NCBI GenBank assembly: GCA_973895155.1
Contig: OZ316895.1
Span: 7,056,184 to 7,120,183 of the forward strand
Length of the DNA stretch: 64,000 nucleotides
Origin: Marsupella aquatica
Taxonomy: Eukaryota > Plantae > Marchantiophyta
Direction of reading: 5' to 3'
Shown here in pieces: positions 2,205 to 62,710 of this stretch. The notes beneath the pieces are model-generated. The model searched no databases. It saw nothing but the letters and a program-made list of their open reading frames with translations, and had not been told where the DNA came from. Positions within the stretch are counted from its first letter, which is position 1. Each line of letters starts with the position of its first letter. Both the position numbers and the translations under genes were made by a program.

Positions 2205-3511
2205 ATGAATGGATACTATGAGTGCGAGGATCCTCTTGCACTCACCAGAGTAAGACCTTCTTCATCCACATGAGTTTTTAGGGTCGATTCCAATGACAAT
2301 TGCACGTCCGTGAAAACTTGGCACATGAGTCCTATACCCTGTGCTTGACAACAAATTTCAATCTGCACTTAACTTGTAGACTGAGAATGATCAATCTTAC
2401 CATGGCAAATTAAGACAGTTGGTCTACATAAAATCGTATCTGCAGGATATCAAACTTCAACACGAGACTAACTTCCGCAAAATTGCGTCTCGTTAAATCA
2501 CAAACTTGCGTTGAAATTCATCCAAAGCTAAATAACCTGTAAACTATCGATAACTCGATCAAGTGCTCTCGAGGTTTCCACAGCTGTCTTCTAACTTTAT
2601 GTTAATCTCGAGATCTCTTCCGGCGGCTATACTTCTAGCCATGAATGAAATGTCTCGAAGTAGGGTGTTTCCTCAAACAATACCCTTCGCCAATGTATTA
2701 ACAAATGCCTGAAGAAATCTTCTTCATGGGTGGAAACAAATATCTTCCAGCAAAATCCTTTTGAGGTCTTGACCTTCTGTTGTATGCCCTACTGCAGGTG
2801 AAGCAGCAAAACCTTGCATATCCATACAGAAGTCGGTCCATCTTACAGCAGGAGTGTCCTGCAAATCCCCCCGCGAGCGCAGTGTGGAATGTAGTCTCTA
2901 GCCTCGTTCAAGCCCTGAGCGACGCCCGAGATGAGCTTCTCACATTGTTGACAAGCGACGGCGTTCAAGTAGCACGAAAATCTGATGCAGCTACAAAAGC
3001 TAGACAGAGCGGCAGGAGCCCGACGTCTAGGAGTCCGAGCAGGAGTCCATGTAGAAGCCCTTGCAGGAGCCTGAGTAGGCCTTTGTCTGCACCGTCAGAC
3101 CTGAGGAGGTCAAGGAGTCCGTTGCGAGCATCAGGAGATTGTGGAATGATCAGAAGCTCCAACTCTTCAGGTAATCAAAAGTCTCGTACAATGACAGCGG
3201 CCTGTTACACTCCTCCCGTGTCGTTCGGCATGAATCTTCAGTTCGACAGTGTGCGGAGGGGAAGAAGCCCCCCCGCGGGTTGTCGGAGACCTGCAGGAAG
3301 GTACCAACCGATGACTCTGAACCAAAGAGGGATGATAACTCCGCATGGTTTAGAGTACGTTCAGGCCGTTGTTCCTGGCGAAAGAAGACGCCATTGTGCT
3401 GCAACCCGCTTTGCAGAATTGCTACAAGCAGAAACCTATCAATTACGAGAGCGCAGGGTCGCCGAAGAATCTGCGGCCAGTGCCCTTCGCAGCAGACCCT
3501 CGTGGTATTAA
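2205..3511 (+). CDS. Uncharacterised Ser/Arg/Pro-rich protein, ~252 aa, 2 coding exons: join(2205..2249,2798..3511)
   Basis: ATG at 2205 gives MNGYYECEDPLALTR followed by donor |GTAAGA at 2250. Acceptor ctactgcag| at 2797 is in phase 0 with the long ORF ending TAA at 3511. Contains repeated RSP(S/C)RS motifs. A possible upstream UTR exon ends at donor ag|gtaagt (527/528), with a TATA-like motif near 256. No family recognised. Confidence 0.55.
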
Positions 3512-4453: not shown

Positions 4454-5870
4454 TCACAATGTGGAAGCTAGCAGATTGGCAACCAATGTGGACTCCGCGT
4501 GCTTCAGCGAATCAACCAATCCACGAGTACCGCAGAAGTTGGCCAGGCTTTGCCACAGAAGAGCCCGGGGGTTCCGTTTCACGTCATCAAAATTTCCAAA
4601 AACACAGAGGAACCGCTTCACTCTTGTCAGCATCACACAAGCTCTGTGCCGGTCTGCGGCAAATAGAGAGAAGTGTTTCCCTGCCACGAGAGAAATCAAG
4701 ACAATGTCACTTTGCTGTCCCTGAAACGAGTCCACGTTGTGAACCGTCACCCTCTCATTCAAGTTCTCTGTTACCAGGAGTTTAGAGATGCATCTGTTCT
4801 GCTCCTCGTACAGCGTTAGAACGACGATATCGTTTCCCGTCTGGCACTTGGTGAGTTTCTGGCATACTTGCAGAATGGCTTGGGCTTCCGCTGTATTGTA
4901 TATGGACGTCTTTCCCTGGTCTTTGGTGGGCACGCCGTGAATGTTGACCCAGAGTAATGGGTGATGCCAATCTCTTTCGTTCCGTCGTGTCGGGGAGGTC
5001 TGTAGCTCGTTCTGATAGATCTCAGCTGAGATGAAGCTGCAGATCGTCGGTGGCATCCGGTACTGCTCCCTGAGGAGCTTGACCTCACAGCCATTGGACA
5101 CCAGGTCGAAAATGCTCGGCACTTTGATGGATCTGGAGGCTTTGCCAGAGCCTGAGAACGGGGGCAATTGGTAAGGATCTCCCAGTACTGTGAGCAGTGA
5201 GAGGTCTGGAAGACAAGTGAGAGGGTATACACAGTCTCCCTCAGCAGCTTGGGAGCATTCATCGATAACCATGGCCGTAACGTTTCCTCCCATCAAGCTT
5301 CTCGTGAAAGCCGGAGAGCCCACTAAGCCAAGGGTGCACACAAGTATTGGTACTGTGCCTCTCTTATTCTTAGTCCGCCAATCTTCGAGAGCTCCGGGGA
5401 GCTCACATCTTGCTTTGGTAACGACAATTGACTTGGCCAGCTTCTCGTAGAATGTTTCGTGCCAATCTACGAAGTAGTCTTCGCTCACTAACAACAACAC
5501 CCCGGGAACTTGCTCCTCGGTCAATGCTTCTGCTAAGTTCCTGGCGGCTACGTTTTGGTAGGCAGTACATAGAAGTACCTCCCGCTCGCCTCGCGCATGA
5601 AGCCACGCTTTTGCGACTGCTGTAATCAAACGTGTCTTTCCTGCACAGCAAGCATTAATGAAGGTTAGAAAGGTACCAGTTCTCCAGATTCCATTCCAAG
5701 CGGGATTCCAAGGCGAGCAACAATTTTATGAATGAGAATGCCAACGGATATGATCATGAGCTGACCTGTTCCTGGTGGCCCTATTGTAGCTGAAAGAGGA
5801 GACGTCAGGATCTGGAGCACTGCCTCTCGCTGGCTAACATTTAAGGAAGCAAAGACATCTTCAAAGTATT
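4454..5870 (-). other. Domain: SF1 Upf1/DNA2/NAM7-like helicase (AAA_11/AAA_12 type) at the C-terminus of the giant gene
   Basis: LNVSQREAV (Q motif), GPPGTGKT split by an intron, AYQNVAA, DECSQ, GDPYQLPP, LREQYRM, NTAEA, VDSFQGQQSDIVLISLV, VMLTRVK. Confidence 0.95.
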
Positions 5871-8800
5871 CCGATGTTAGCCGTGAAGCTTCTCTGGGAA
5901 ACGCTGAGTGCTCTTGTTTCGTCGGAATCTGTGCTTTTCCATTCTGTGGTTTCTTAAACGTGTTCGTCTTTGTACATTGAGACGCTGCAAGTTCTGGTTT
6001 CCTCAGAATTTCTTCTTTCCCAAGCTGTGCCTTCTCAGACGAGCTTGCCGTCGTACATTTCGGCACATGACGTTCTGAGTTCTCCGTAATCTTTGCTTTC
6101 CAACATTGCTGTGGGTTGTTAGCAATGCTTGCCGTTGGACAGTTAGGGGCTGAATGCTCTGGTTTCTTTGGAATGTTTGATCTCACACGTAGCTGGTTCT
6201 GCCAAGTAATTTCTGTCCCACATTTGAGTGCAAGAGAGAGAAGGCGAGGGCATCTTTGTGGATGGCAAAGTAGATCGTAGAACGCATCCCGAAGACGTCG
6301 AAATTGGGGGTTGCGGCTCTTACTGTTGTCCACAATCACATTGCTGATGGAATTGATGTCGATCGGCAATGCCGGTGTCTTTAATGATGAGGACCGATCG
6401 CTCAAAGGAGATAACACCACTGATTTCCCCGTGCGAGTCTGGGCTTGAAAAAATGCGGGTTTCTGACCATCGTTGAAGCGGAGTTCAACTCGCGAGCCTA
6501 CGCTCGTTACTCGTGACCGGAAGTCGCGCTGGAGGAGCCGCAGAGTGCTTCGAGAGCTCTCACTGATGCTTGCTGACGTCTGCAACACAAAATTACAGAT
6601 GATGCACACAGATGGGACTCCAATCATCACTGTGCCCTGTAAATCAATCTGCAAGAAACAGAAGGGGAACGAGAAGAAATGGCGTACCTCAAATACGGTC
6701 TTTTCTGTGCGCTGCAAGATGCCGTAATTTGATATTGCCCTAGCAAACAACTTCAGCACTTCCTCCGGGAGCTTTTCGAGACATGTCACAGGTATATCAA
6801 CTGCTGCAGGTCCTTCGAGCGCAATCATGCGAGAAGCCCAGGCATCCAAGGCTGCATATTTAATCTGCAAGTTCCGTTTAGTACATCAACGTACAATTCT
6901 TAGAAACACCAAAAATTGATGACGATCCGTTGATTAATTTTACTTCAATGCACCCTATGTACTGCAGACTCTGGCGGTTGACCTTCAGCTGAGCACTTTA
7001 TATTACACCGACATCTAGGCCTGCTTTGGTGAACAATGCTTTGGTGAAAGTGGGAAATTGGGCCCATGTCTGTACCTGTTCCAAAGTCAAGGTTGCACAG
7101 CTCCAGTCACTTGTGGTAATGGATTTCTTCTTTGTCCACTCCCAGCCATAGAGAGTCCTGCGGCCATATCAAACAGGACATCTGGTGTTATCACAAGTAG
7201 AGAACAGCTTTGGCGGGTAGCTTTTATTACGATCATGGCAGTGTAGCTAGCTCGCAAAATGATATCAATGGTTGATTGGAGGGGAGTACATGCATTGGGC
7301 ATCAACTTGGCTCGAACAACAAGAAAAGGTCAAAAATTAAGCCGAACCTGAAGATTCCCAGAATGCCTGCGGTTCGATTCGCAGTAGTGTACGCTGGTGA
7401 GACGTTCTTGAGACCGTTCACCATCAGGCCGAGAGTATGGTATATTGCAAGGGCGTCATTGTGGACCTCAGCTCCAGACTTCACTATTTTCTGGTCGCGT
7501 AAAACAGTGGCAAGTCTTGAAGGACAATGACAATTCAAAGTCTTACTTGTCAGATGAATCAAGACACACCGCTGGTGTGTTGAAACCTGAATGAGGTTGA
7601 GATCTCCGTTGAATCCATGCTCGCAATCTAATCCAAGCATACTGGTTGCGTCACTCTGCGGCAGCAACCAATCAATAGCAGCGTCCACGCCAACTGGATC
7701 ATTGATCTGGACCGTAAGTACCTCAACGGTAAATGTTTCCACAGATTGGGGAGTAACGTAGTCGTCAGGTGCCCGAGGCATTTTACTCATTACCTCCTTC
7801 GGTATTCTGATCTGGTAGTAAGTACTTGAACACCCTCCTTCTTTCCTTACTCTCACAACTTTTATCTGGTCTTCATCGGTAAAAGCTTCTTGGGCTGGGG
7901 CTTTGACAACATCAGAGACTTCTGGCGTTTTGTATTCAGGAAACTTACACTGAATGCTCTCGCGCACATCAAGACTAACATATTGCCAGAATTCTAAAGT
8001 GGATAACAATGGAAACTCCGTTGCGCAGGTGTTCTTCAAAAGATAATCATCAATGTCATCGTGTTCGGTCTTATTGACCTGACCCCACCAAGCTACACGA
8101 ACCTTGTAACCCCAGTCTCGAAGAAGACGAAATGTCTGGAAGTAGCAGCTTGTCACCTGTTATGACCAGCAAATATATCAAAACAGAAATCAAGTAGGAG
8201 ATGGGCAGAATTAAGAACTTAGGTGATAAAATCAATTTACCAAATGGGTATATGGACTAAGAAAAATGAGTTCCCAACATGTCTTTCTTGTGAATGACAT
8301 TGATGGATTGACAGAAGCAATGTTATGAGTCACAGGAACTGGTCATTCCGTGTTATATATTAGAGCCTTATCTGGGAGCAGAAGAAAGTTTTAAACTAAT
8401 GTTTTGAAGTACCTGGTCATTGCATTGTGAACCAGCATCAGGGAAAAAAATGATTTGCTCAACCTCCATCATGGCCAAATAGCACTGCAGTAGATTTTCT
8501 GATCGAGCGAAATCAGCTCCAGATGCGCCAATTACTGGCAATCCACTCAAACCTGCTAGGACATGAGCTTTGAGGCCACCTTCACAAAGACCAACTATGG
8601 ACAAGTCACTTTCTTGCGGAATACAGCAAAACAGGGGCAGTTCTCCTCCAATTTGAGGGCCCTTCCCACCCTTGAAAAGTTTATTACTGCTGAGCCAAAC
8701 GTACTTTCTTTTTCCTGTCAGATTGTCGTCAGCCTTTATTTGGCCTCCAGTGATTTGGCCAGATGGATCTCTTGCTGGGATGAAAATACCACGAGTCCCC

Positions 8801-11800
8801 ACCAAGCCGGTTCCTTTTCCATTCATACCAGGTATTAAGCTGCTTCCCATTATATCTCTGCCTCGAATTTTTCCTGGAATCCAGGACTGAAATTTGAAAT
8901 TATAGCATCGCTTTGCATCTAGTCCCCTTCGCTGTAATTCCTGTTTAGCACATAAACATAATGAAAAGTGATTAAAGCTTTCTGTAGAATCATGTTCTTC
9001 AGAATCATGTTCTTTGTCCGGTTAATATACGAATGGTGAAGATCAACATAGATTAAAAAGCAGCATATTTTTTTAGATATATAGACATTCAAATCCAAGA
9101 AAGGTTGACGTCAAGAAAAACTTAAGATTGACTACCATTTTGTGAGCATCGTTCAAATGTCCCAGCTTTTCTAGTATTGCTTGGTAGTGAAGATTCCGGA
9201 ACTGAGTTTCATCCACCCCATAGGTATCCAAAAGGGCAACTTCAAGGTCTCTCTTTCGTTCCATTGACGATGGCAACCTCAGCAGCAAGTTCAAGATTTT
9301 TGATCTACAATGCTCATCGATGTTCAGATTCATCATTTTGATGGTTTCAAGCAGCCAGAACACATTTTGCATGTGTATCTCCAAGTCCATGATCGAAAAC
9401 TTGTTTTCAATGGTCCAATCCAAGCATTTTCCTACAAAAAAAGTTGCTTTGGAACTACAAAAGCCAAGTAAATCGCGCACGAAACACCTCACTAAACTTG
9501 CAGTTGCGCCTAGCACCTCTTGATACATCACCACAGCATTTAAGAGCTTGAAAAATATGCTGATGTTCTCTCCATTAAATAGTCTCCTCAGGGCTGACAG
9601 GGTAGTCCATACCGAACTCTGCATGATTGAATCTATTAGCCGTAAAGAAGAGTAATGCGAGATTTCGTTGCAGAGATTCCCACGAGAAAAGAATGTGTCA
9701 AGTATATTCGACTGGTTCTCCAATATTAACTGCATGATGTAGGGCTGGAACACTGAATCCCAAGTCCAATCCACTGGTGAACAGCAGCATTTGAGAAGTG
9801 AAGCATATTCCAATGCATTCTCGGGCTCCAGCCTATCATATACAAGTAACCATCTTACGCGGCACTCCACCGTTTTTGACAGTGAGATATTCATCGACTG
9901 AATGATGCGAAGAAGAACCAACTGCAGTTTTGCAGCGAAATCAATCCCCTTTTTAAGGATTCGGCTGTCGCAATGACAGAGCAATTCTACGAAGTTACAT
10001 ATTTGCGTAGAGATCTGTTCCTGGTCACCCCCAACGACCTTACCTTTCCAAGGGACTAGGAGAAATTCCCGAGTCAGGATGTCTTTGATAAGACTTTCAT
10101 CGTGGTCAATTTTCCAGCTTAGTAACAGTGCCTCCATCACTCCCGTTGCTGTACTAGAAGGCCCTCTCAACGACAAGTGACAACACAAACTTTGTACTTG
10201 CTCCAGAATGCCATGAATCTTGCTCGTAAGGTCACTCAAGTGTATCGTAATTTCTGCTTGGCCAACCTCTGAGCGAGATCGAATTGCCTCAAACTCAACC
10301 TCATTTTTGGTACGAGAAACTCCCCCTCGGATTTGCGTCACATTTGCAAGGGTCACTTTCAAATCATCAAACCAAAAAATCTCGGAATCCTTCTCTCTTT
10401 GCACTTGTACTACATATGGTTCTGATGGAAACTCAAGCTTGGACCCTTTCCTGACAATCTTCTTTACAAATTCGTGAGCCTCCTCACTGCCATCATGGTC
10501 CTCTTCAGCTGCCTGCACAATCATTAACCCTCAGAGTGGAGATAGAATTTTTTTAATTACATCACATTCTTTGACTTGTCAGTGATTCCATACGTTAATC
10601 AAAGGCATGGCATTTAATTTTCTACTACTCAAACGAATGGCAACTTGGAAAGCTGGACATAGGTCCAATACAGGTTGACGAAAGCACTCACCTGCATAGA
10701 CAATCTTACATCTACTTGAGTAGCACCAGTATTGAGCCTGACAACATCGGCTACAGCAAGCCTAGTCTTCGACAACTCCACCAATTGTAAACGGAACCTC
10801 CCAGGAGCATCAATTGCATCTGTGATATTCAACTTTCCTACGCTATCCCTTTGGTCTCTGGCTGTTGGATTTGAGACTACGATTATAAAATTGTTTAGTC
10901 GTTCAACAGTTCTTGGATTACAGAGATGTAAACCTGCTCTCAAATAGTAGAAGTCTTTATCTGAGATTGTGTCGTCAAACCTTCGCTTAGATATTTGATG
11001 ACGATCGAGATACTTTCTCAACTCACCGAGAGGCTTAACCTGGCCATCACGAAATGGTAGACATGTCTCGAGAATAGTTGAACAACTAAAGACTACACGC
11101 CCCAGCCGTGCTTGCATCTGTACATTCCTACGTGGGCCCAGCGCTACCATTGCCTTGTCAAATGTTTCCTTCATTCTGGCATTGAAAAGTGAACTGGCAC
11201 CACAAGCATTTTTACTATCGAGAGATATTTCGCGAACGAGCACGAACTCTAAGGACTTGTACCCAACGGCACTTGATGAAATGTCCTGAAATCCTTGGAC
11301 ATGCACGCAGCGGATCTTTTCGTCCATATTTATCGACTCTATGTAGGTATCGTCAAAAATCCAGGGTGATGACTGTTGTTCTTTGTGGATCATTGTCTCA
11401 ATTCCCTGTAGAGCTTGTTCTACGTCCCTGGTCTTCCCAGAAACAGTGACAAGTCCAGGCCTCTGACTTGACGAGAAAGATCCAACTGAAATTCTTGCAG
11501 CAAAATGTTGATGCTGAAGTGCAGAGAGAATTGATTCTCTTTGTTGGCGTTTCACTATAACCTGTCTAGTGATGAATGAATCTCCACTAATCTCAGGGGT
11601 GAAGCTTCTTACCACCTTACACTGAACTTGATATTTTCGTGCCTGTAATTGCACTCTCTGAGCCGCCTCAGCTCCAAGAGTATTCGTAGGCATATTACCC
11701 TCCAGGTCAGGGTTGCAAATGGAGTGATACAATCCTTCCATCTCCTTTTTCTGCTTCCTATTGATTAGCTCGTCTTCCCTGGAATAAACGTACTGCAGCA

Positions 11801-14800
11801 CAACCTTCGTGTGCTCTGCGTGTCCAGCATTTTTCACAAGCCTCTGCAGTAGCTCAAAGAAAATCCCATTATGGGATTTGTTGCCTCTAATCCATTCAAT
11901 TAACTGTGCCTTGTCCACTTCGAGTTCTGCTGCCTCAAAGGACTTCTCGAAGATTGTCAGGTCTGATAACTTGGATGGATTTAGTTGTGCAGATTCCTTC
12001 ATATTTGCACTAGGAGGACTGTTACATTTATCATTCCTGGATTGTACCAATATGGGACATGACTGCCTGTCTTGAAGTGTTGAAGCAGACCCTGGTATCT
12101 GACCATGGTGGGGGCAAGAATTGGATTGGTTAAGGAATCCATCCTCTATAGTTTTGCCTTTCTTCATAGCTTGCTTCACAGGTGTAAGCGAGGGATATGC
12201 CAACCATAACCCAAGCTCCGGAGCCAGCAGCCGAGCGGCATATTCGGTTGCCTGTATATACTGATTAAGGTTCACCAGATCTCGGGCAAGGTTACAATTC
12301 CCGAATTCTGAGGCTCCTCCCACTAAGCCCTTGATTTTTGTTCGTAGACCATCAATGTACTTCAATACTGGCACGCAAATGAAACAAGGTGCTAGCTCCA
12401 AAGTTACTCCTTGGTATCTTATGGAGTAAATTCGATCACTATTGAAGAGCAAACGAACTTGAATCTCCCCGTCCCGGCCTGAAGGCCTGAACAATAACAG
12501 TATCAAGACAGAAAAAAGATGATCTTGTGGTAGTACCGTAACATTTGAGGCAAGTACCTCCGATGCGTTAGACGTATAGGGCATATTGACAGCGACTGCG
12601 ATGTGAAAGGAAACGTCCTTGCGAACTTCAACTGATCTGGAAATCAGGTTCAATCGATTGAACTGGACTCTACGGAGTTGAGTCCCGATCATTACTTTCC
12701 ATTGAATCCTTCGAGAATCTGAAGGGTGACCCACATAAATCTCCTCCATTACCTCTTTCTCTTTTCTATTGATGACAAGCTTTCCATTTCTAGAGAAGAA
12801 ATTTGCCATATAACTTGCCAATCGAGCCATGTCAGGCAGGTCTGAAATTACACGTGGAGAGGAGAGAGAAGTCAACTGTTCCTGTTGGAGTCCACATTGT
12901 ACCAGAACTGCTCGCTCAAAGGATGGTACGATCCTCTGAATGGGCCCCAAAACCTGCAAGTAGCCCAAACCATGATGACATTGTTTTAAGTGTTCTTTCT
13001 GCTGTACATAAGCAAATAGAATCTGCACCCGTCATTCACTGATCTGCTTGAGAGGCATAAGAAAATCTGCGATACGGAAACAACTAGTCGTCAATGATTT
13101 ATAAGCGGGATCAAATTATTGAACGGAGCTAGGGTCTCACCTTTAACGCCATTTCAAGCTTTAGAATGTCGGGTCCAGCTAAGTTAGGAGGTACATTGTT
13201 TAGCTTAAAGGAGACATGCGCAGGCATGTTTGATTTCTCTAGGTCTCGGATTTCAGCAACACCTTGTAAATTCTTGGCAGGGACACCTATGAACCAATTG
13301 TGTGAGAATCCTCCCGCTATTACCATCTGTACAACTGCTACGTTATCACAAAATTTTGGGATGGTTTGATGTCTTCGATATTTCTGATTCTTGTAGGGAT
13401 CAACGGCTGCTAGCGTCCTCAACTTGGCGAGCTCATCCTCCATGCCTTTACCAAATTCTCTGGTGACGAAGATAATTGTCTTTCGAGCATAATCTCTCAC
13501 CAAAAGAAGAAAACAGTGCAAACTCGACTGCCTCAACTCACTCCTGTAAATCCACTGCTTGCTCGCCAATTGGGACTGCATGCGTACCCACTCATGATAG
13601 ACCTGACAAAAGACCAATAAGTTACTGGCATATCCTCCTTGAAAGTGCAACCTTGCTCTCAAGTTTGCTATCCTTCGCTCTTGAAGTGACACTGGATCCA
13701 CAGAGCCGCGGTTATCCAGGAAAGGTTGGTTGAAAATATCAGCTTGTAAGCTTATGCCTGCTGCCATGATCACGCAATCCACCGAGCACCCGGCTGCGAC
13801 ACCCAGGAGCACAAACCGAGCCAAGTGAACGTCTGGTGAAAGCTCAACTGCGAGTCTGCCAAGCGGAGTAAGTTCGCAGGAATCTGACGAGCTAGTCTCG
13901 GTGATCGCTCCCAATATTTGCAGCTCTTGCATGGAAACCCTTACATCCTTGAGTTGAAGTGAATCCAACAGCTGTCGCAGAAGATCGACGACTGAAAAAT
14001 CGGGAAATCGACTTTGGAATAAACTTTTGACTCGCAGGATATTGGACCCCAAGTTTTGCAGTGCGATGTCTGGCTTCTCATGTGCAGGAAAATTATTGAA
14101 AGTCTCTCGAGTGTATAGCCGGATAACAAGGCCAGGGAAGAGCCTGCCAACCCTACCAGCTCGTTGGGTGGCAGAAGCTTTCGAGCACCACACTCTTGAT
14201 ATTTTGCCACCTGACGTCTGGCAATAATCTATTTGCATCTGATGACCCAGGTCCAATACCACTCGCACATTAGCGATCGTCAGGCTGCTCTCTGCAACAT
14301 TAGTGGCGATGATAACCTTCAAAGTACCTGGAAGTGATGGCGCAATTACAGTAGCTTGCTCCTCCCTGCTAAGCATCGAGTGGAGCAACATAACATCCAA
14401 TGGTGGAAGTCTTGCATCCCTAAACCTCGACACCCTCTCAAAACCTTGCTGTATCTCGGTGATGTCTGAGTAGGTCGCCACAAACACCAAAATACAATCA
14501 CCCGCCTGCCCAACGTGCATGATAAGACCTGTGATAAGATCGATTGCAAAATGGGGTAGGTTGGTGCCATCTAATGCTCTCACACCAGTTCCAGAGATCT
14601 CCAGGAACCTGGTACCGAGATCTGCCACTGTTTTGGGAAGATCTGGCAGATAACCCAGTATCTCGTCCATGTGGACAATCTCGACGGGAAATGTGCGGCC
14701 TCTGATGATAATTGGTTCGACGTTCTGATCTCGCGCGGTTTTCAGTAAACAACTGAAGTACTTCTGCAGTGGGCGAACTTCCATAGTGGCCGACATAATG

Positions 14801-16545
14801 ATCAGCTTGGTTGAGTGGAATGACTGCCATCCACTATTGTTTCCAATGCCACCCAGTAAAAGCTTCAAAAGAAGTAACAGGAAGTCCTGCTCCACGCTTC
14901 TGACGTGCACCTCGTCCAATATTAGATGTGTGATGTTGCCCGCTTTCTGATCCCGTGCCAGCCACTACCACGTACAGAAGCAAACCATATGAGCTTATTT
15001 AACCCAACGATGCAATGTTATCGAAGTCTAGCTGAATCACCATGGCGAACGCTCATACAAATCCAGAGTGAAGGTGAATTATGAATTAGCTTAGGATCCG
15101 ACATTTGATTCGTTGAAGCAATGACGGACATCAATTATTCAAAAAGGGAGGATGCCACAAATTAGAAATTGTCACTAAACATGCTTCAGAGTTCACGTAC
15201 AACTGATACAAATCACCCTCGCTGAATGATCTAATATTAATCAGACTTCAAAACAAATCTGTTTGAGAGCCTCAATTATAATCCTAAATAATTATCGCAG
15301 TTGAATCTCGCCGTTAATCAACTGATGTACGAAGCGATGGTGTCAATCTGGAGGAAAGTAAACTCGATATATCAGATCGACATATGTGAACTGTGAAAGT
15401 GGTCTGGAAAAGTTTGGAGGTCATCTGATATTAGACTGAGTGACGACCGACGACCATATGCTAGCAGAAAGCTTCTATCCAGTCTTCAACTGTTGGCACA
15501 TCATGATTTGAGCAGTTTATAAGTCTGCCAGTTGTGCAACTGCAGCAACTAGTTCGTTTTTTCTTTGCAAGACGACTGATAGCTTCCATCGACTCGAATC
15601 AGCTGCAAACATTGTATAATGAACGATCTGAAACAGAGCCGTCTTCCCCGCCTTTTTCACATAAACTTCGGAAACAAGTCTGTTGCATGGGTAGAAGTTT
15701 TCCGAAGACTTTCTGGGACATACTTCCAGAAGATAGCCGATTGTGACGAAGATGAGTCGAGTCTTCCCAAACGTAGAAGCTCGCTCGTGTGCCACAGCAA
15801 AACCCACATCTATTCCAACTCGTTCCCCCCTTGAGTGGGCTACATACTGTGCTAATGCAACAGCTGCAACTCGTCTCGGTTGTGCAACTATGACGCTTAC
15901 GCTGTTACGTCGTCCTCGAGCAGTTGCATCGTCCAGAATGAACTGTGGAACAGCAGTGCTCTTACCGCAACCTGTTTCCCCCTGCCAGGTCACAATTCAA
16001 AGTTACTCTCCTCTGCAAAATTAATGTCGCCATCCTTAACTGTTCAGATAGGATCCCTATAGAGAAGAATGATCGGAAATCAATAAATTCGTATCTGAGA
16101 GTGCAGATCGGTATTGTGAGGCTGGAAGTCAAAGTATAGTAGCTATCTCAGATGACGCTAGATACGTTTGAGCCCAACACCAAATCTATATAGTTTAATC
16201 CACTAGTCAGATTGCGCAATTGAGTTGTGGTTTCGCCAAACCCACCTGAATAAATGTGATACGGTGATCTGAAATGTGTTGCAGTATGTGTTCTCGATGA
16301 GCTAAGATAAGACTCTGAGTACGGCGATCTGAAATGTGTTGCAATTTGTGTTCTCGATGAGCTACGATATACCTCTGAGAAGTACTGCTATATTTCCGAC
16401 CTCCAGAGGGTGTTGGGTGGCTGCCAATTATTATATCCGGCCTGCGTAGGATGCCTTCCGCTGAGCTGTAGACGATGCCGTGCGCTGGCCTTTGACCATT
16501 ACTGCCTCCGCGGCGTCCCCGTGTCGTGTTCTTTATTTGCTCCAT
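4454..16545 (-). CDS. Giant multidomain nucleic-acid enzyme, ~3205 aa, 11 exons: DEAH helicase + HA2 + KH-like + CYTH-like + Toprim + DEDDy exonuclease + Upf1-like SF1 helicase
   Basis: Exons on the minus strand: 16545-16246, 15981-15724, 14964-13141, 12953-10692, 10512-9136, 8940-8413, 8156-7348, 7157-7076, 6864-6688, 6579-5766, 5640-4454. All introns are GT..AG. The total is 9618 nt, in frame, with no internal stop. Junctions rebuild conserved motifs: TFIQ|GETGCGKST, HKM|ELQRRGL, NDQ|VTSCY, TLEQ|IKYAALD, GPPGTG|KT. Confidence 0.88.
6830..7720 (-). other. Domain: DEDDy 3'-5' exonuclease (WRN/EXD2/Mut-7-like)
   Basis: ExoI LGLDCEH; LIQVST; VLRDQKIVKSGAEVHND (ExoII); SDW...LTLEQ|IKYAALDAWAS (ExoIII YxxxD). 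The last part depends on the 82-nt exon 7157-7076, which the ORF track does not show. Confidence 0.9.
8040..9200 (-). other. Domain: Toprim/primase-like, resembling the N-terminal region of cyanobacterial plasmid Rep (CyRepA1/DUF3854-type) proteins
   Basis: RNLHYQAILEKL..L...HK-ELQRRGL; IPGMNGKG..L...GIFIPARDPSGQITGGQIK; KYVWLSS; GELPL; GLCEGGLKA (Toprim Glu); PVIGASG; FFPDAG; VAWWGQ..K..DDIDDYL. Confidence 0.75.
13480..16320 (-). other. Domain: SF2 DEAH/RHA-type RNA helicase core plus HA2 (N-terminal part of the giant gene)
   Basis: Motifs I GETGCGKST, Ia QPRRVAA, Ib TIGYLL, II DEVH, III MSAT, V ATNVAESSLTI and VI QRAGRVGR; HA2-type LQILGAI...LTPLGRLAVEL. Confidence 0.95.
16261..16380 (-). 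repeat. In-frame 60-bp tandem duplication in exon 1 of the giant gene
   Basis: Lines 16261-16320 and 16321-16380 are near-identical; they encode VAHREHKLQHISDRR and LAHREHILQHISDHR. Confidence 0.9.
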
Positions 16546-17294: not shown

Positions 17295-19764
17295 CTCGAC
17301 CTCTCTCCACTAAATATAATAATAGGCAGCCACCCAATACCGTCGTGAATTTGCCGCCTACATGCAAAAGCTATAGTACTGTAGCTAAGCTCAGTACAAG
17401 CTGAACCTACTCGACTAGCAACAAGGTGACAGTGACCGGAACTAAATCATGTCGAATTGCCATCTTGAATTTGCCGCCAACATGCAAAAGATTTCGTGCA
17501 TGGCAAGTACATTGCGACGCTGAATTTCGTGATGGGATCTCATCATACCGACCCAACAGTTCTTCAGTCTGTACCTCTCATATTGTGACTACATCAAGAT
17601 TGACGTGCCCCGATATTCTCGCTCCAGCCCAAATTCATTCTTTCTTTCGCTCGTGCGAGATATACATATATCCTTTCACCCAAATAAAAGAGATCTCTCA
17701 CTCTCTCTCGTTGCAAAATCTAAAGGATGAAGAGACCATATCGGCCACAATCATGTGACCGTTGCCAAGATTTGGCACAGGATATGTCTAATGTACTTGA
17801 ACAATCATGGAATGGACAAAGCTAGCTACACAAGTGAAGCAGGGAACCAAGGCATGCTGAGTGTACAGCAAAGCCAATCGAAATGCAGGCCATAACTTCT
17901 GCTAAGAAGATTACTTCTTTGAATGTGACCATCAGTCTGCGACTAAGGGTCGAACCCGTCACTCCCAGACCCATCACAGGCACAAACAAGATCAGATGCA
18001 AAAACGAAAATCTGAGCGTGGAACCCAGCAAAAATCTACTTGTAAGAACATGCAAAGTGACATAATTTTATGTCAGTAAAAGCCTATCCTCTCTACTCTG
18101 CCTTTCTCCTCATCCTGTGGGTGTTCAGCTTAATTTGGGGCTCTGGTTCTCCCCTCTCTCCCTCCTGGTGTCGGTATGACCCCGTTGTGGGCTACCCTAC
18201 AGAAGTGCATGCTCGGGAGTTGATAATCTATCCTGTTTGGATGGGTCAACTTTTAGTTTCAAGAGGAAAATAACAAATGATAAAATCGTTTTGATAAGTG
18301 TGTTTCTGTTTTATAAAGATTCCAGCGGCAAGCTTGGAAAGGACTCCCATCCCAAACCTCTTGCTTGTCCCGATTCCAAAACTCCAATGGAATCTATTGA
18401 AACTTTATTTTGCAAAGAGTATTGATTTGCTCTCATGCAAGGAGAATTTTGTTGTTCATTCAAGTAGAGAAGTTGGGATCGAGATCCCCTCCAAGCATAT
18501 CACTCATCAAAAAGCATTTATCTTAGGTCTGAAAAATTATTTTAGTTCTCCATGAATTTATTCTTTTTATACATGTTAAGCCGATATATGAAGGTGCCAA
18601 AAGAGTAATTGAATTTATTCTTTTCATAATTGTTGGGCCAGAATATCAAGGTGTCAAAAAAAACAAAAACCCCACACTGGGAGACCAATTCCCAAGAGGA
18701 AACGACCCAATGAACGGGACAAGGGAAAACCTCCAAAGCCAGTTGTGTCCAAAACTGGTTGGTCCAATTGGAATCCTTCAGGTCACGAGGTCAAACCTTG
18801 TGATCATTTCGATCCCAGCCTCAACTGCCAATATACAATAAGTTGGACGGTGATCCACTCACTGCTCATGGTGTCCGGTTGTGGATGCTACAGAACGAAT
18901 ATTATTGAGATCTTCTAGTTTGTTATGAGATCTTCTCGTACGTTGTGCAAATGAGGATGACTCAAAAAGCGACAAATGAGGTGAAAAAGCATCATGGTCA
19001 GTAACAGAAACCCCAATCAAAATACTATTATCCATTCATTCCATTGACTGTCATAGAGTTGGGCCCCATTACTAAAAAGGGCAAATCAAAGTTCAGTGTA
19101 GTGAAAGTAAAAGAGATGAAGGGAAGAACAAACACCAAACTCAATAAAAGGAGAAATGTAAACCCCTAAACCTAGAAAGGGGAAAAAATAAAAGGGAAGA
19201 TCTTTCTTTTGCTCACTTGGGCCCATTCTTTGACTTTACGACATCACAGAGAGCCATGTAGGGACCATCATATTGGCCCAAAAATAATTAAATATTGAAA
19301 AGTTCAGTCCCTATTACGAAGATTTAGGCAGTGCTTTGGGAAATTAGGAAAAAACTTCCAATTAAATTTTAGAAATATTCTAAGCATTTTGATATAAAAC
19401 ACTCATGTATCTGTGTATGCATTGTTTTTAAAGCTAAACCCTGATAACATTGTAGACACTACAACAAAAACACTGGCAAAAAAAGTGTATGCTTGGGCAA
19501 AATCTGAGAGTGGCATGATAAATTAGAAGACTTTTTGTGAGTTTTTGCAAGGTTTTTCAGTGAAGGTTGTTGTGGCTTGAATCTGTGATGTGGGAGCAAT
19601 ACAGTGGCACAGATGTTTTTGATCATACTTTGGCCCATTTGGCTTGCTTTCAATTGGGCTGAATTGTAGCTTCAAGACAAAGAAAATTCATTTATGTCAA
19701 GACACTGCAGATTTTGTGTGGAATTAATTCAAGCTGTAGCATCACTTAGAAATCTGAACTGAAA

Positions 19765-31299: not shown

Positions 31300-32478
31300 C
31301 TCACTCCCTTCCCTTTCCGTCGCGTCCCTTTCTTCGGAAGCCCTCGCCTCGCGTGCGGACTCTCTCTCTCTATCTCTCTCGCTTGGTTTGTTGGGTTGGT
31401 GGTGGTGTCCATAGCCCTCTCTCTGCGCTACTCTTCTCCGTCGTGATCGAAGCAATCTTCCTTATTGAAGACGTGTTGGGCGTGAATTGCCTCTCTGCCC
31501 CACTCCTTCGAACAACGTTGGTGTGGCTTTTGAGCGCGGGTCTCGGTTGACGACCACGACGACGAGCACTGCGCTGGTTTCGTCTTCCGAGGTGGTGCGG
31601 GGAGTGCGCGTAGACTCGACGATTTGTCGATCGATCACGGGCTTGTTGTGTTGCTGTGCAGGACGACGAACGCAGTCGCGGCGGTGGAGGGACAGGAAAG
31701 AAAAGAGTTCTTTTGATGCGCACGTGGAAGGAGGGCTGAAAAGGTTTCTTTTCGCGGAAGTTTGGTGTGCTGCAGACGCCGAAGGTTGCACGGCGGTGTG
31801 AATGGTGGAGACGGATGGGGAGGGAAAGGGAGGAGGGGCGGAGTGGGGAGCGACCGGGAGATGAGAGCTACAGGGGGGCTGTGTTGTGGAGAAGATGCAG
31901 AGGAGATGGTGGTGACGATGGTACTTTTGTGTTGTGTTGAATAGGTTTTGGGTAGTGCGCTGAAGGACAAGCAGCGGTCAAGAGGCGGGGCCAGGAGGAG
32001 GGGGTTCTTTTGAGTACTTCACCCGGAAGAAGCCGATGATCGAGAAAGAGGCGAGTGGAGAACAGAGTTTAAGGGAGGGAAGAGTGGATATTGTAGGGTT
32101 TCAGCATACAGGAGCATGGCGGTGAAGAGATGATGCGAGGCGGGGAGTTTTTTGGGCAGGATAGGAATGAACCAGTCTTGGTTGGTGTGGAGAAAGGGGG
32201 CACGGCATGGTAGATGTTGGTTTTAGTGAAAGGTTGTGGGAAGGCAAGCTACTAAGAGGGTTCGTGACTTGCCATCGCGGGACGAGAAGTGTGTCGTGGT
32301 TTTATTGCTGATTTAGAAGTGGACCGCACCTGGATTTCGGTTCAAGCTCTTTGGATTGACGTATCGCCGGATCGTAGTGATGTTTCCTTGGTTTGACGAT
32401 TGCTCGAGTGGGGTTTGTGGTCCGACCGCCGCTAGGAAGTGAAGGAGTGGCAGACTCCTTGGACTCTGGTGAGGCGAA

Positions 32479-35400
32479 ATGATCTCTGTGAAGAGACTCG
32501 CCGACGCCAGCGGGAAGCAGTTCTATTCGGTAGAATCTCGTCTGCCGGACGGGACTCTTCAGTGCGTAACCAGATCACATAAGTTTAAGTGCAACACCCG
32601 AGGCTTCGAAGATAAGGATACTCGGTCAAGGGCTCTTAGATTCGCCATCACTACGGACACATTACCTGCTTTTCGAGCGTTTGTATTCAGCGAAGTGGCG
32701 GATGGGCCTGCGACCGGGAGGAACGAGGGATCAAGGCCAGTGTCAGGATCGAACGCGCATCCGCCTGTAGGCTCGTCTCAGGATGGTGTGACGCGGAGGA
32801 TCAGGTCTTATGTGTGTCTGCGGCAGAATCGATTAACAGGATTACGGTTCGTGGTGGCTATGTCTCGGCTCGACTGCGGGCGTTTGCGAGCGATTTCGTT
32901 CCAGGACCATAGCTTAGTCGGGACAGGTAATTCGGAGGAGGCCTTGAACAAGGCGGTGCGGTTTCTGCGGGGCGTGGCCTTTGAGAGTTGGCGGAAGCAA
33001 ACGATGAATGAGTTGACGAGCAGGGATCGAGAAGGGGTCGGCAACAGGAGGGAGCGAGCGTTGAAGCACGTAAGTGCCTTCGTCGAGATAGAAGCTGGAG
33101 AAAAGGTAGACTGTGCGTGTGGCAAAAACCGCAGTCGGGGCCTGATGGTGGCGTGTGAGCGGTGCGGGGCTTGGGAACACGCGGAATGCCAGGGCTTCCG
33201 TTCCGACAAGCAGGTGTTATTCCTACCCCGGTGCCTCGTTACTGATTGTTATCTTCTTCGCTACTTTTGCCGGCGACCCCTGTGTCGGATATTATAACGG
33301 TGCCGGATGTCTGGCGGATCCTTGATGAGCATCGGTACGAGCATGGCAAGAGCTTGCCGAGGCGGCCATGCTCTTGCTCGATGTGGTTATTTTACCGCCG
33401 CAATTACTAATCCGGCATGTTGTTTCTCTACCGCGCAGATGTTTTGTCGAGTCGGATTGCTATGTTGACATCATGATCTTGCAGGAAGAGAATTGTCGTG
33501 TCATTGTTTCAACCTCGCATCCATCCATACTTGAAAAACGCTTTTGTTTGTCATCATCAGCGTTTTAAGCGAGTAAAAAAGGGTCTTGTGCGGATGATGA
33601 AAGATTGCATGCAGAGCTTATTGAGGGTAGAACGTACGTGGATGGCAAAGAGTTGTTCGTTGGTGTTTAAGTGGCAGGGGTATGCTGATTCTGCTTCTGC
33701 ACCGTCCGCCTCAGGAGTTTTGACGCTTGGTCACAAACGACTTGCGATAGTTAGACAGGATCTGAAGGATATTTCTCGGAACGGAAAGGATCGGAAGGAA
33801 CGCTTGTTTGGATTAAAAGCGCAGGTGTCTTGGGTTGGTTGGTTGTTTGGGCGAAATGGATAAAGCAGCAAGGATGAGAGGAGTACAGATTAAAAGCAGA
33901 TGATGAGGTTGTGAAGTGTGTGGGTGGGTTGCTGATGAAAGGCATGGCATGCAAGCTCAAACGTTTGTGTTTCTATCTTGCAGATACCTGCGGAGTACAT
34001 ATGCTCGGCATGTATGAGGGCGGAAAGGGAGGATGTGGTTGTCATCAGGTTGGAGGAACAGGTTAGTCTCAGGAATCTACGACAGCTTCAGACTTGAAGC
34101 GCGGTCTTGTTTAAACAGGGAATTACTGGAATCAATCTCAAAGGATTACAGGGACAGGATATGATGCCATACCTATGGTCTGCTATGGACTCTTAAAGTA
34201 GAAGAGCTTGTTTTCCACAAAGGAGCTGGATAAATGAAGGATTACATACTAGAGTTGTAAACAATGACGAGGTGGAGAAAGGAGTGTCCCTATTTTGTCT
34301 TTTGCTTGGCTTTAGAACAGGGAAAATGTCAGACTGAGGATATGATGCAGAAATGGATTACTGCTTTGGGCCTTTAAGGCAGGGAAGCTCTAGCCGTCGT
34401 TTGTAACCTATCCGTCCTCAGCCACCTCTTGGTCTAGGCTGCAGCGACAGATACTGTATGGTGCCATCCTACTGGCTTGGAGTCAAAAGGAGTTGCATAG
34501 ACCTTTATAAGGAAGAAAACCCGGCAGCCTCAAGGTAATGGCCTCCAGATGCAGTCACTGGCGGGCTATTATCTGCTTGTGGCAAAAGCTTCGTAGCTAA
34601 TGTGAGTGCAAGCAGTAGTAGGGTTCGAGGATGCTATGCTCGCAGCTGTCAAGACTAGTTCTGAGTGTTTTTCTGGTCTTCTTGTGCTCAGGGAGAATGC
34701 GGAAACTTGCAACTAGAAGATCTCTGGACAGATGCCAAAATACGAGACAGGGAAGCAGACGATGGTGTATGCTGTGTTTGTGGGTGCGAAGACAATCAAG
34801 ACTTCGAGAACATGGTATGGCCTGCTATAGAGAAGCTGTAACCCGCAAGTCAGGAGTGACAAGGCCATGCTCTTACTTCCATTTGGGGATGCATTTTGTC
34901 AAACTTTAGTATTTATACTCAGTAGTGTATCCGTTACTCAGGTTTGACTTGTGATGTGATGGTACAGATCCCCCCTGTTAACGAGCATGAATGTGATGGG
35001 GGTACCGCGTTGGCACATCCAAGTTGTATATCAGCTGCACACCAGATGTCTCACAAAGCTTGGAATGGGAAAGCAACGGCAGCTGGCATGTGTCAATTAT
35101 GTGGGGATCGGTTTATGAAATCTCCCAGGGCAAACGAAGAGGTTTATTCCCATACGAGCTCCGGAGTTTCGCAGGCTAAACCAAAGAAAGGTTCCCTTTC
35201 TCCAAATCAATCTCACACTCGAAATTCAAGAAGAGCTGGTAAAGTGGATCAGTCAGTAAGAGGAGCAAAGAGATTGCGGAGCGCTTTGACTAATGGAGGT
35301 GTTGTTCCGAAACAAGATGTCGTAGACAAGCGCCCTGCAAAGAGTGTAAAGGAGGAGGACTGTGAGGTTCAGGCAACTCAAAGTGGCGAGAAGACGGATT

Positions 35401-38400: not shown

Positions 38401-39694
38401 TCAAAGTGGGGGTCGTAATGGTAGGGGAATACCCTTTAACATGGGAAGAGGAGGGCCAGGGATGAATATAGGTATGGGAATTAATCTAGGTGGAATGCGG
38501 GGTAACATGGGTATGGGAAGAGGAATGGGGGTGGGCCCTGGAATGGGTATGAATATGGGCATAAGCATGGGGATGGGGATGGGCGTTGGCCCTGGTGTAG
38601 GTATTGGCATGCCTGGACGCGGTGGACCTGGAGGTAGAGGAATGGACCGGTACAGTGGTCCGTATGGGGGTCGTGGTTCAGCTGGAGGCCCAGGGCTGGA
38701 ACACTCATCTTCCAGCAGGAGAGGCAGATCTTACGAGGACTACGGTGAAAGCTGGTCGAGGAGAGAGGATCGTAGCGCTTCTCCTAGGAAGCGGAGAAGT
38801 ACGTCAAGGAGATCACGCTCTGGCAGTCCATCAAGGTCTAAGTCTCGTACGAGATCTCCCAAAGCAAGAACACCACCCCGGCCAGCTAATAGTGGTGGTA
38901 GTGGTGGTGTCGTCGTCGGCAAGAGCAGTAAGAAACGTAGTCATTCTCCCGCCGTTCATAAATTTGAGGCAAGGGGGGAAAGAGCTGACTCATCGCCTGC
39001 ACGGCGTTCAGTCCCAGCACCACCAAAACTCCCTTTACCTCCGCCTCCGCCGCGAAGTCAGCGATCACCTCCAGCTGGGTTGAGACGCTTGAATGACAGC
39101 AAGAGAGACGGAGATAGAGCTCGATCCAGGGACAGAGAAAGAGAACGAGAGCGTGAAAGAGAAAGGGAAAGACCACCCACAACAAGGGCCCGCACTCCAC
39201 CGAGAAGAACGTCCCCCCATGTGGTGCATGGTTCAGCTTTGATGGATGAAAGAGATAGACAATTATTGGCCGGAATCAGGCATGTTTCACCTTTAAATGC
39301 GAGGAACAGGTCTTCTGAGAATCCAGGAACAGGTACTGTCACGTCTAGTCGAGATTCACCACCCCTTGTAAGTCCTGTTGGGCGCGTTGCTGAGGGAAGC
39401 ACTGAGGCGAGGAGACAATCAGGGGATGAAGGTGCGGATAGCAGAACGCATGGGTTTAAAAGGGAAGACATGGGGAGTAAAGCAGAGCAGAGAAGCAGCA
39501 AGGAGACCTCCCGGAGTGACCGTGAGCGCAACGCAAGGAGAGATGGTGGAAGAGACAGAGATGAGGAGAGGAGAGACGTTAGCAAGTCGAGCTACAGCAG
39601 TAGAGACAGGGATGGTAGGTCCAGCAGCAGCTTGAGGTACAACAGGGAAGGCGATGATGATGTTGCTCCTCGACGCAGGCGACCTTCTCCTTGA
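32479..39694 (+). CDS. PHD-finger protein joined to a long low-complexity region (PIKKRR, WDLN, KVESSGFVVAPDGT motifs; At5g13590-like), ~1687 aa, 6 exons
   Basis: join(32479..33213,33984..34061,34692..34814,34968..35423,35724..37765,38065..39694) = 5064 nt in frame, all GT-AG. PHD1 is CACG..MVACERCGAWEHAECQ..|IPAEYICSAC. A second Zn finger reads CCVC..C..HPSC..CQLC. Then a basic NLS-like PIKKRR, an EAR-like DLN, an acidic tract, an RGG/GM-rich tract and an RS/RE tail. Confidence 0.8.
37208..37356 (+). repeat. Coding 18-bp tandem repeat (hexapeptide xEIQEG, ~8 copies)
   Basis: LEIQEE PEEIQEG QEIQEG LQIQEG LEVQEG IEIQEG IEVREG IEIQER; gagatacaagag recurs. Confidence 0.85.
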
Positions 39695-49034: not shown

Positions 49035-49160
49035 GATAGCGGACTATCTATATTCAAATAAAGTTAGAAATTGTTAAGTTCCCCATGTTACAATCATGTT
49101 TCAAAATCTGGACTCTCCTCCAAAAAATATTGTAAAATCACTCAAAACCCTAAATACATT

Positions 49161-53700: not shown

Positions 53701-53843
53701 CTTGGTTAGAAGATTTAAGCAAATGTTTGCCTCACCCTCAGGGCGAGGCAACCTAGACTAGTCTCTCTAAGAATAATTCCCTAGTTCCGTTTCAGTCAAT
53801 TGCGGTTAGATGTAGAGGTTCGCCACGCCCTTGGGGCGAGGCG
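50777..53843. repeat. Ten copies of the palindrome GCCTCGCCC-N3-GGGCGAGGC (seven in intron 1, partly as a 65-bp tandem array; three in intron 2)
   Basis: Copies near 50777, 50862, 50978, 51044, 51109, 51174, 51295, 53661, 53727 and 53821. The first is a perfect TTGCCTCGCCC-TAA-GGGCGAGGCAA. Confidence 0.92.
51988..52654. mobile_element. Nested ~667-bp MITE inserted in the cargo gene exon
   Basis: TIRs CCCTGGGCCCCCAGC (51990-52004) and GCTGGGGGCCCAGGG (52640-52654). Direct repeat CGCGTG at 51982-51987 and 52655-52660. Removing the insert restores the reading frame QEAACRTWISEMKKK. Confidence 0.88.
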
Positions 53844-62703: not shown

Positions 62704-62710
62704 TATATAA
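62704..62710 (+). promoter_or_regulatory. Candidate TATA box of the small gene at 63067
   Basis: TATATAA followed ~35 nt downstream by a pyrimidine-rich leader (cttctcctcattctcattc). Confidence 0.45.

Follow-up and report, generated by a model that had tools for sequence, protein, structure and literature searches.

A predicted giant protein of liverworts and ferns joins two helicases to a DnaG-type primase core of likely cyanobacterial plasmid origin

The DNA analysed here is a 64,000-nucleotide (nt) stretch of the liverwort Marsupella aquatica (contig OZ316895.1, positions 7,056,184 to 7,120,183; hereafter the window, whose own numbering we use). On its minus strand, at 4454..16545, lies a gene predicted to encode one very long chain that carries, in this order, a DEAH helicase, a KH fold, a CYTH/triphosphate-tunnel-like barrel, a DnaG-type primase core, a DEDDy 3'-5' exonuclease and a Upf1-like helicase; every part of the gene described below lies on that strand. 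The gene model was built from the minus-strand stop-to-stop frames and the sequence of the 64-kb window. It comprises 11 exons (exons 1-4, 16545-16246, 15981-15724, 14964-13141 and 12953-10692; exons 5-8, 10512-9136, 8940-8413, 8156-7348 and the 82-nt 7157-7076; exons 9-11, 6864-6688, 6579-5766 and 5640-4454), which join into 9,618 nt and encode 3,205 amino acids (aa) plus a stop, with no internal stop codon. All ten introns run from GT to AG and measure 108-759 nt each. The initial annotation had proposed nine open reading frames and an 82-nt exon, spliced through ten GT-AG introns into a 9618-nt frame, and the rebuilt model bears this out; the four introns singled out there (13140-12954, 10691-10513, 9135-8941 and 6687-6580) were recovered to the exact base.

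The model is colinear with a 3,343-aa protein of Calypogeia fissa (P0002), which aligns to residues 9-3205 (69% identity) and runs uninterrupted across every one of the ten junctions, and it has full-length homologues in ferns. A second Calypogeia protein, P0001, is gap-free at all nine junctions that it covers and ends before the superfamily 1 (SF1) helicase. If retained, nine of the ten introns would bring an in-frame stop into the transcript, intron 9 (108 nt) being the one without a stop. In DNA contigs of a second organism, the 12 insertions or deletions listed out of 38 include 11 that are non-coding and one that is exonic and in frame; the exonic variants among the 40 listed out of 302, a small and selected subset, fall at 14 sites in 12 codons, 8 of them changed and 4 silent. 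The contigs aligned to the window contain no intron-skipping joints, look like DNA and are uninformative on expression.

Exon 1 (16246..16545) holds the start codon, a Gly/Arg-rich N-terminus and a 60-nt tandem duplication (16260-16379) that doubles a 20-residue stretch. A 31-nt inverted repeat also has one arm in this exon (16406-16436), which pairs with 17314-17344, about 0.9 kb upstream. We considered exon 1 as a false start supplied by this repeat and rejected the idea, because the exon matches the N-terminus of Calypogeia P0001 (tblastn, 16536-16246, 47% identity, E 1e-13). The N-termini of these proteins are short, contain acidic residues and, by eye, are unlike transit peptides.

Calypogeia has three paralogues, one complete with a duplicated N-terminus, P0001 without the SF1 subgroup B (SF1B) helicase, and P0006 without the DEAH, KH and barrel parts. 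Such partial-chain models would be expected if two or more adjacent genes had been fused by the predictors or if the parts were mostly expressed separately, and the homologous models are themselves predictions. We consider this explanation very improbable: most module borders lie within exons, introns 4, 6, 7, 8 and 10 interrupt conserved domains or motifs, the introns are just 108-759 nt long, and a single chain is predicted in four other species as well. Taken together, the model and its homologues support the original claim of a single gene whose single chain combines DEAH, KH-like, CYTH-like, Toprim, DEDDy and Upf1-like modules. We conclude that the locus is one intact nuclear gene of a liverwort-type plant, present in ferns too, and that it encodes a single predicted chain. 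The identity to Calypogeia and the primase tree likewise point to a liverwort host. In sequencing run X4, a contig skips 4,498 nt of the window (11006-15505), most of the DEAH helicase to the start of the barrel; it is probably a deleted paralogue or allele.

The search for the same architecture in other proteomes, which the initial annotation had suggested, yielded full-length homologues in Calypogeia and three ferns. An 800-aa frame compared with longer proteins gave two matches among 5,999 candidates, both from Calypogeia fissa, and the middle region of P0002 matched five of 6,105 candidates of 1,838-5,851 aa. These five full-length matches came from Calypogeia (two), Adiantum nelumboides, A. 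capillus-veneris and Ceratopteris richardii; we take Calypogeia to be a leafy liverwort and Adiantum and Ceratopteris to be ferns. The fern copies are 33-35% identical to the P0002 middle region across 96-97% of it, and the order of domains is identical in the liverworts and the three fern species. The homologues in the databases carry either no name or only 'hypothetical'. Homologue searches brought up no named moss, Marchantia, lycophyte or seed-plant protein, where unannotated genes or word-seed limits could hide some, and the pattern of absence among lineages is suggestive only. The gene's narrow, patchy range, its three Calypogeia paralogues, two of them truncated, and the deleted copy in run X4 are features commonly seen in defence genes.

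A profile of the KH-barrel-helical region, searched against 1.84 billion representatives, returned ten proteins, namely two known homologues and eight fragments from Logan. Several of these fragments start or stop at positions of the window's introns (model residues 1548, 2007, 2183 and 2452), among them P0092 and P0008, which are fern-like, and the more distantly related P0094 and P0096. The latter two appear to form a third, distant lineage, 24-34% identical to the liverwort and fern versions, in which intron positions 4 and 5 are apparently kept. The fragment ends fit descent from an ancestor common to liverworts and ferns in which the gene already contained introns 4-6; an old transfer from plant to plant is a possible alternative.

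The DEAH/RHA (superfamily 2) helicase occupies aa about 81-790 (13153..16305, exons 1-3) and was recognized by Pfam Helicase_C (E 2e-11) and HA2_N. Motif I with K107, the DExH motif II (DEVH, 203-206), motif III (SAT), motif VI (QRxGRxGR) and the HA2 part are all present in the window and in Calypogeia, and the best sequence matches in the PDB were DHX29 (1e-36) and Spindle-E (7e-32). The three ferns have lost motifs II, III and VI. A beta-rich region follows the core (aa about 795-1050, 12186..12953); it has no Pfam match, is OB-fold-like by position only, and is 23-25% identical to the ferns and 66-67% to Calypogeia. Next comes a type I KH fold (aa about 1253-1320, 11376..11579), for which Pfam KH_PARP14_8 gave E 2.7e-4, below the cut-off; the fold was confirmed on the model of the Calypogeia homologue (Z 9.4, root-mean-square deviation (rmsd) 1.7, 67 aligned). 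The GxxG loop, an RNA-binding feature of type I KH domains, is absent in the nine aligned rows shown. We considered a DEAH11/12-type origin of the DEAH and KH parts and set it aside, as no supporting match was present among the Pfam matches listed. An all-helical, solenoid-like domain (aa about 1661-1975, 9232..10176; predicted local distance difference test (pLDDT) mostly 60-90) lies after the barrel; it is 19-20% identical to the ferns and gave only generic helical fold matches. No metagenome locus matched the middle region.

The DEDDy 3'-5' exonuclease (aa about 2331-2500, 6805..7715, exons 7-9) was identified by Pfam (DNA_pol_A_exo1, E 2.5e-9 in P0002) and by fold, with matches to At5g06450/RICE1, EXD2, RRP6, WRN and Nibbler. 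The window has Exo I DxE (D2360, E2362), Exo II Asp (D2417) and Exo III YxxxD (Y2483, D2487) on an RNase-H-like fold; in the three ferns the Exo I and Exo III acids are lost. The beta-rich stretch at aa about 2540-2655 (6232..6579), ahead of the SF1 core, is, from its position, probably the 1B barrel of Upf1-type helicases, and aa 2501-2660 are 23-28% identical to the ferns. The Upf1-like SF1B helicase itself (aa about 2780-3190, 4502..5859) matches Pfam AAA_12 (E 2e-39) and AAA_11 and has motifs Q, I, II, III, IV, V and VI (K2812, DE 2937-2938, R3005 and R3150 among their residues), which are kept in liverworts and ferns. Its PDB sequence matches were Sen1 (1e-19), Upf1 (3e-18), ZNFX1 (8e-16) and Dna2 (1e-14). 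In PADLOC, P0002 matched MkoA of Mokosh (E 1e-51), which we read as general Upf1-likeness.

Thus the claim that the DEAH, DEDDy and Upf1-like motifs are intact was confirmed in the window and in Calypogeia. DEAH and Upf1-like helicases generally have opposed polarities. The picture of two opposed helicases combined with a nuclease, put forward from the window alone, holds for the liverworts but is limited to them, because the fern proteins have lost the DEAH and DEDDy catalytic residues while they keep the primase and Upf1-like motifs. Among the modules, the primase core is the best conserved between the window and the ferns (55-56% identity), followed by the SF1B helicase (46%), and the other catalytic or binding domains fall at 19-44%. 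These comparisons suggest that the protein relies throughout on its primase core, SF1B helicase and conserved barrel and can dispense with the DEAH and exonuclease parts as enzymes.

The region that had been called Toprim (aa about 1976-2255, 7941..9231, exons 5-7) does contain a Toprim fold; it is, however, not a Toprim alone and proved to be a complete DnaG-type primase catalytic core with N-terminal subdomain and Toprim, as indicated by fold, plasmid matches, tree and residues. In the AlphaFold model of the Calypogeia homologue (47 alignment rows; pLDDT mostly >90 here), the best fold match was the DnaG RNA-polymerase domain (Z 16.8, rmsd 4.0, 264 aligned; Foldseek E 3.5e-7), and the Toprims of topoisomerase, RecR and RNase M5 scored lower (Z 6-8). 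E2127 and K2131 do not vary across the nine plant rows and the 42 rows presumed to be bacterial. Wherever the plant rows reach D2175, D2217 and D2219, these residues are retained, as they are in 40 of the 42 bacterial rows, and K2212 is conserved too. Plant (G2177) and bacterial rows alike have Gly at the second position of the DxD motif, the Asp being absent in 40 of the 42 presumed bacterial relatives, so that the motif is incomplete. No CxxC zinc-finger motif was found within about 130 aa upstream of the core in the window, P0002, P0004 and P0005, nor in Prorocentrum; a CxxC does occur somewhere upstream in 30 of 34 presumed bacterial database rows.

Exon 6, which encodes part of this core, had no match in Pfam, NCBIfam, PADLOC or PHROG. 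By tblastn it matched 63 plasmid records, 52 of them from ten named cyanobacterial genera; all of the 25 records listed were cyanobacterial, five being annotated as CyRepA1-family replication proteins. Membership of the plant core in DUF3854 or CyRepA1 was tried and rejected, as neither Pfam DUF3854 nor NF042913 (CyRepA1) matched the plant proteins above the cut-off. When the core was compared with shorter proteins (68 matches among 2,825 candidates), the best matches beyond the plant rows were Leptolyngbya-type sequences (43-45%) and a partial protein of the dinoflagellate Prorocentrum cordatum (40%). PDB sequence searches from alignments gave no match for the primase core or the middle region. 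The N-terminal DnaG-like core of many cyanobacterial plasmid replicases (L001:3638-7639, L002:4599-8279 and P0009-P0073) has no Pfam or NCBIfam model of its own in the proteins scanned, and its active site is non-canonical (EGxxK, DAG).

A tree of the primase cores was built from 52 rows, with 39 near-duplicate ids and nine short matches left out. The nine plant rows form one clade (99/96) with fern and liverwort-type subgroups, and this clade groups with Prorocentrum (98/91) and with three Leptolyngbya-type rows (98/97), apart from the remaining 39 rows. Prorocentrum as sister to the plants is starred in the free tree and sits on a long branch, and a tree without this grouping survives (p-AU 0.17). 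With no outgroup in the tree, the direction of transfer is judged from how widely the core is spread through cyanobacterial mobile DNA and how rare it is among eukaryotes; on these grounds the core was likely acquired from cyanobacterial plasmids by horizontal transfer. The sequences of Prorocentrum cordatum (P0012/P0081, partial; some members of the cluster are labelled Polarella glacialis) have a zinc-finger-less core of 37-40% identity with the same C-terminal extension, and no usable match was found in the Atlas for their N-terminal part; independent capture and a shared eukaryotic family are both consistent with them.

The primase exon found nothing in phages, viral contigs or PHROGs. A strict pattern scan of prokaryote genomes with it gave one match of 25 residues, and three metagenome loci carry a related core, for the primase part only. 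In two metagenome contigs (L010:1569-6255 and L011:3553-8700) related cores stand beside frames that, by eye, are terminase-like, and the donor class is therefore best worded as a cyanobacterial-type mobile element. Since such cores are typical of plasmids and phage-like elements, and a 31-nt inverted repeat overlaps exon 1, it may be asked whether the whole gene simply forms the coding portion of a mobile element, or was captured from a replicon only recently, and does nothing for the host. This is highly improbable given its ten spliceosomal introns, of which positions 4, 5 and 6 are apparently common to fern-like fragments, the split of liverwort-type from fern sequences in the primase tree, and profile scans that contain no transposase or relaxase domain.

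A core whose relatives replicate DNA also raises the alternative of a DNA-directed machine, in which the SF1B helicase would open DNA, the core would prime or patch single-stranded DNA and the exonuclease would trim, in repair, fork restart or attack on invading single-stranded DNA. The primase core and the helicase are the two modules intact in all full-length copies, the exonuclease resembles WRN and EXD2, and the SF1B helicase matches Dna2 at 1e-14; moreover, a pairing of primase and helicase mirrors that of the cyanobacterial CyRepA1 replicases, as described in the excerpted text of PMC9978351. We nevertheless regard this alternative as unlikely, if worth taking seriously, since the core has no zinc finger, the DEAH, KH and triphosphate-barrel modules indicate RNA, the partner helicase is of the eukaryotic Upf1-like kind and not cyanobacterial, and a patchy range is a poor fit to essential repair.

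The barrel (aa about 1385-1660, 10177..11183, split by intron 4) is a predicted one, proposed from fold matches and conservation. In a model of the KH-barrel-helical region (16 alignment rows, mean pLDDT 60), VIA-align placed it nearest to triphosphate-tunnel folds, with Cet1 at Z 8.7 (rmsd 4.1, 136 aligned), yeast Cet1 at 7.5 and YgiF at 7.3; Foldseek matched YgiF, RESC1/2, Med18/20 and Pct1 at E 0.002-0.07, and viral capping triphosphatases at E 0.006 or weaker. Atlas mRNA_triPase clusters scored 0.77 for the barrel, which we treat as a lead only. These are four related searches, each with a modest result, and three of the four depend on one low-confidence model. The second Glu of motif a is Gln (Q1408) in all eight sequences that cover the barrel, so that the pair of metal-binding Glu residues is incomplete; the first position of that motif is Gln in four and Glu in four. 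Motif c keeps its Glu-x-Glu (E1619, E1621) in ten of ten sequences, and seven basic positions do not vary either. According to PMC10201420, Cet1-type enzymes become inactive once one such Glu is gone, and the inactive RESC2 binds 5'-triphosphate RNA through basic residues of the tunnel. This refines the CYTH-like assignment of the initial annotation: the modelled barrel resembles RNA triphosphatases and is probably not an enzyme, because the metal-binding Glu is missing in eight of eight. Because the exchange of Glu for Gln is invariant and the basic residues are conserved, the modelled barrel is probably a 5'-triphosphate sensor.

A predicted triphosphate-binding barrel in the same chain as a primase core would also suit a small-RNA amplifier. 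On target RNA or DNA that had been unwound, the core would make short antisense RNAs bearing a 5'-triphosphate, the barrel would grip their 5' ends and the exonuclease would trim them, giving guides or immune signals independent of an RNA-dependent RNA polymerase. Primase products are indeed 5'-triphosphate oligoribonucleotides, as the excerpt of PMC2910064 states; Spindle-E is among the closest DEAH structures, and Nibbler and RICE1 are among the fold matches of the exonuclease. The zinc finger and the second DxD Asp are missing, however, and for the related cyanobacterial Toprim-like domain the passages of PMC10079941 at hand record no known primase activity. We hold this explanation to be quite improbable.

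We tentatively favour a single-chain surveillance or defence enzyme that recognizes uncapped 5'-triphosphate RNA and passes it to a helicase-driven, primase-derived site, a proposal that is plausible and could well be wrong. In this scheme the barrel, probably inactive, and the KH fold would select 5'-triphosphate RNA of viral, transposon or aberrant origin, as RESC2 does with guide RNAs. Unwinding or stripping of the RNA would fall to the Upf1-like helicase, which every full-length copy keeps intact, and the effector role to the DnaG core, which lacks a zinc finger and is the most constrained of the modules. This core might be a nucleotidyl transferase that depends on metal and serves for tailing or for making oligonucleotides, or a nuclease like RNase M5 or OLD, rather than a replication primase. 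The DEAH motor and the DEDDy exonuclease would complete degradation in liverworts and serve as binding scaffolds in ferns. That the enzyme is antiviral or anti-transposon, as the initial annotation suggested, stays a hypothesis. We favour this reading because most modules are of RNA type, five of them coming from RNA-acting families (DEAH, KH, RNA-triphosphatase-type barrel, DEDDy and SF1B), because the zinc finger is lost, and because there is a DnaG precedent in RNA decay: in the excerpts concerned, T7 primase without its zinc domain loses template-directed priming (PMC2910064), and archaeal DnaG binds RNA and directs stable RNA to the exosome (PMC4227792).

Several observations weigh against this proposal. 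Canonical Toprim sites consist of a Glu and a DxD (PMC6755086, in the part consulted), and with the second Asp absent (G2177) the core may only bind; in its accessible text PMC10079941 says of the related cyanobacterial Toprim-like domain that its function 'remains unknown', primase activity never having been shown. The primase core's relatives are DNA replicases, and the exonuclease also matches the DNA-acting WRN, EXD2 and Pol I proofreading domains, as the SF1B helicase does Dna2. That helicase is not assignable to the silencing helicases, because Sen1, Upf1 and ZNFX1 are about equally distant, their scores falling within four orders of E-value. The barrel was modelled at pLDDT of about 25-65, its matches are middling (Z 8.7; Foldseek E at least 0.002), and Med18/20, which are non-catalytic structural barrels of Mediator, match it about equally well. 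In addition, the ferns have lost the motifs for DEAH and DEDDy catalysis.

Together, KH, 3'-5' exonuclease and helicase modules commonly make up a degradosome, and the chain could serve housekeeping quality control of endogenous 5'-triphosphate or structured RNAs, such as RNA polymerase III products or ribosomal RNA fragments, as an exosome-like chain with DnaG and KH as RNA-binding caps; archaeal DnaG, with its RNA binding and exosome targeting (PMC4227792, as excerpted), lends this some weight. We judge it improbable, as the searches made brought up no homologue in model mosses, Marchantia or seed plants, the paralogues turn over and become truncated, and the fern exonuclease is degenerate.

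A bolder version of the surveillance proposal, for which we see only a slim though real chance, is that early land plants took a cyanobacterial plasmid primase core into a giant RNA helicase and made of it a 5'-triphosphate-sensing immune enzyme. A dead capping barrel would supply a RIG-I-like logic, the primase site would add short RNAs or tails to the invader or make them from it, and some liverworts and ferns would have retained the gene while the model plants lost it. If the barrel does sense 5'-triphosphate RNA, this would be a RIG-I-like route in plants, one that could have gone unnoticed in studies of Arabidopsis, Physcomitrium and Marchantia. Ceratopteris richardii is a genetically tractable fern, and because it carries a copy (KP509_35G005800) the idea can be tested directly; the contrast between liverworts and ferns points to the primase core and the SF1B helicase as the working parts. 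Beyond the question of function, cyanobacterial mobile DNA likely contributed to a nuclear gene of early land plants by horizontal transfer, and a DnaG-type primase core is placed inside a eukaryotic RNA-helicase protein, apparently outside organelle replication.

Elsewhere in the window, 45321-49043 (-) holds two long frames (789 and 376 aa) that have no Pfam match and are transposase-like by eye. Fragmented frames at 53103-57591 (+), with a weak N6/N4 DNA methylase match (E 0.012) and an NIF phosphatase match (E 5e-14), are possibly a decayed element. Further frames on the plus strand include a PHD finger frame (32473-33294), a long acidic RGG/RS-rich gene (34926-39691) and the start of a probable Argonaute gene (62653-63267; Gly-rich_Ago1, E 0.009). 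Rfam had no match in window positions 1-30000.

No Pfam, NCBIfam or PADLOC family covers the whole architecture, and architecture-specific literature searches found no description of it, with subscription journals and supplementary tables outside their scope, so that a listing in a horizontal-transfer or expression table is possible. The statement that no plant protein with this architecture had been described thus stands within the literature and the three databases searched. Every domain belongs to a known class, and the function of the whole is what we infer above. Nearest to the primase core are the replicases of cyanobacterial plasmids, both those annotated as CyRepA1 and unnamed primase-helicases, with a core 30-45% identical in which the invariant residues E, K, D, K, D and D and the non-canonical DAG motif recur. 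The plant protein differs from them in having neither a zinc finger nor the CyRepA1 helicase region, and its core sits in an intron-bearing eukaryotic gene; NF042913 matches only the C-terminal part of the bacterial replicases, and DUF3854 matches neither the plant core nor the bacterial relatives scanned. With the RNA-polymerase domain of bacterial DnaG, found also in T7 gp4 and Twinkle, the core shares the fold (Z 16.8, 264 aligned), the Toprim Glu, the first Asp and the C-terminal acidic pair. It differs in its low identity (10-16%), in Gly for the second Asp of DxD, in having no zinc-binding domain and in a Lys four residues past the Glu, where DnaG has Asp.

The SF1B helicase, with all its motifs, and the large multi-domain build recall ZNFX1, SDE3/MOV10, HELZ2 and MkoA of Mokosh. 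We know of no Upf1-like defence or silencing helicase that carries a DEAH helicase, a primase core or a triphosphate barrel, and Pfam scans of the plant protein contain no NFX1 zinc fingers or RNB domain. Similarly, an RHA-type core with HA2 is shared with Spindle-E/TDRD9, DHX29/DHX36 and plant DEAH11/12, the best PDB matches being DHX29 and Spindle-E, and a KH fold comes after the helicase in DEAH11/12 too; unlike these, the protein has no Tudor, RING/IBR or DEAH11/12-type KH match among the Pfam matches listed, and its fern copies are degenerate. Trypanosome RESC1/RESC2 have a triphosphate-tunnel fold that lacks the catalytic glutamates and whose basic residues bind the RNA 5'-triphosphate (PMC10201420, as excerpted), and the predicted barrel described here matches them (Foldseek prob 1.00, E 0.004); they form a mitochondrial editing heterodimer of only 11-14% identity to it, and 5'-triphosphate binding is predicted for the plant protein. 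Finally, the DnaG of the archaeal exosome is a separate subunit of a phosphorolytic complex that has no helicases or triphosphate barrel, and is likened to the plant protein by function and not by sequence: in both, if our proposal is right, a DnaG/Toprim protein would take part in RNA binding and decay beside a 3'-5' nuclease (PMC4227792, in the part available).

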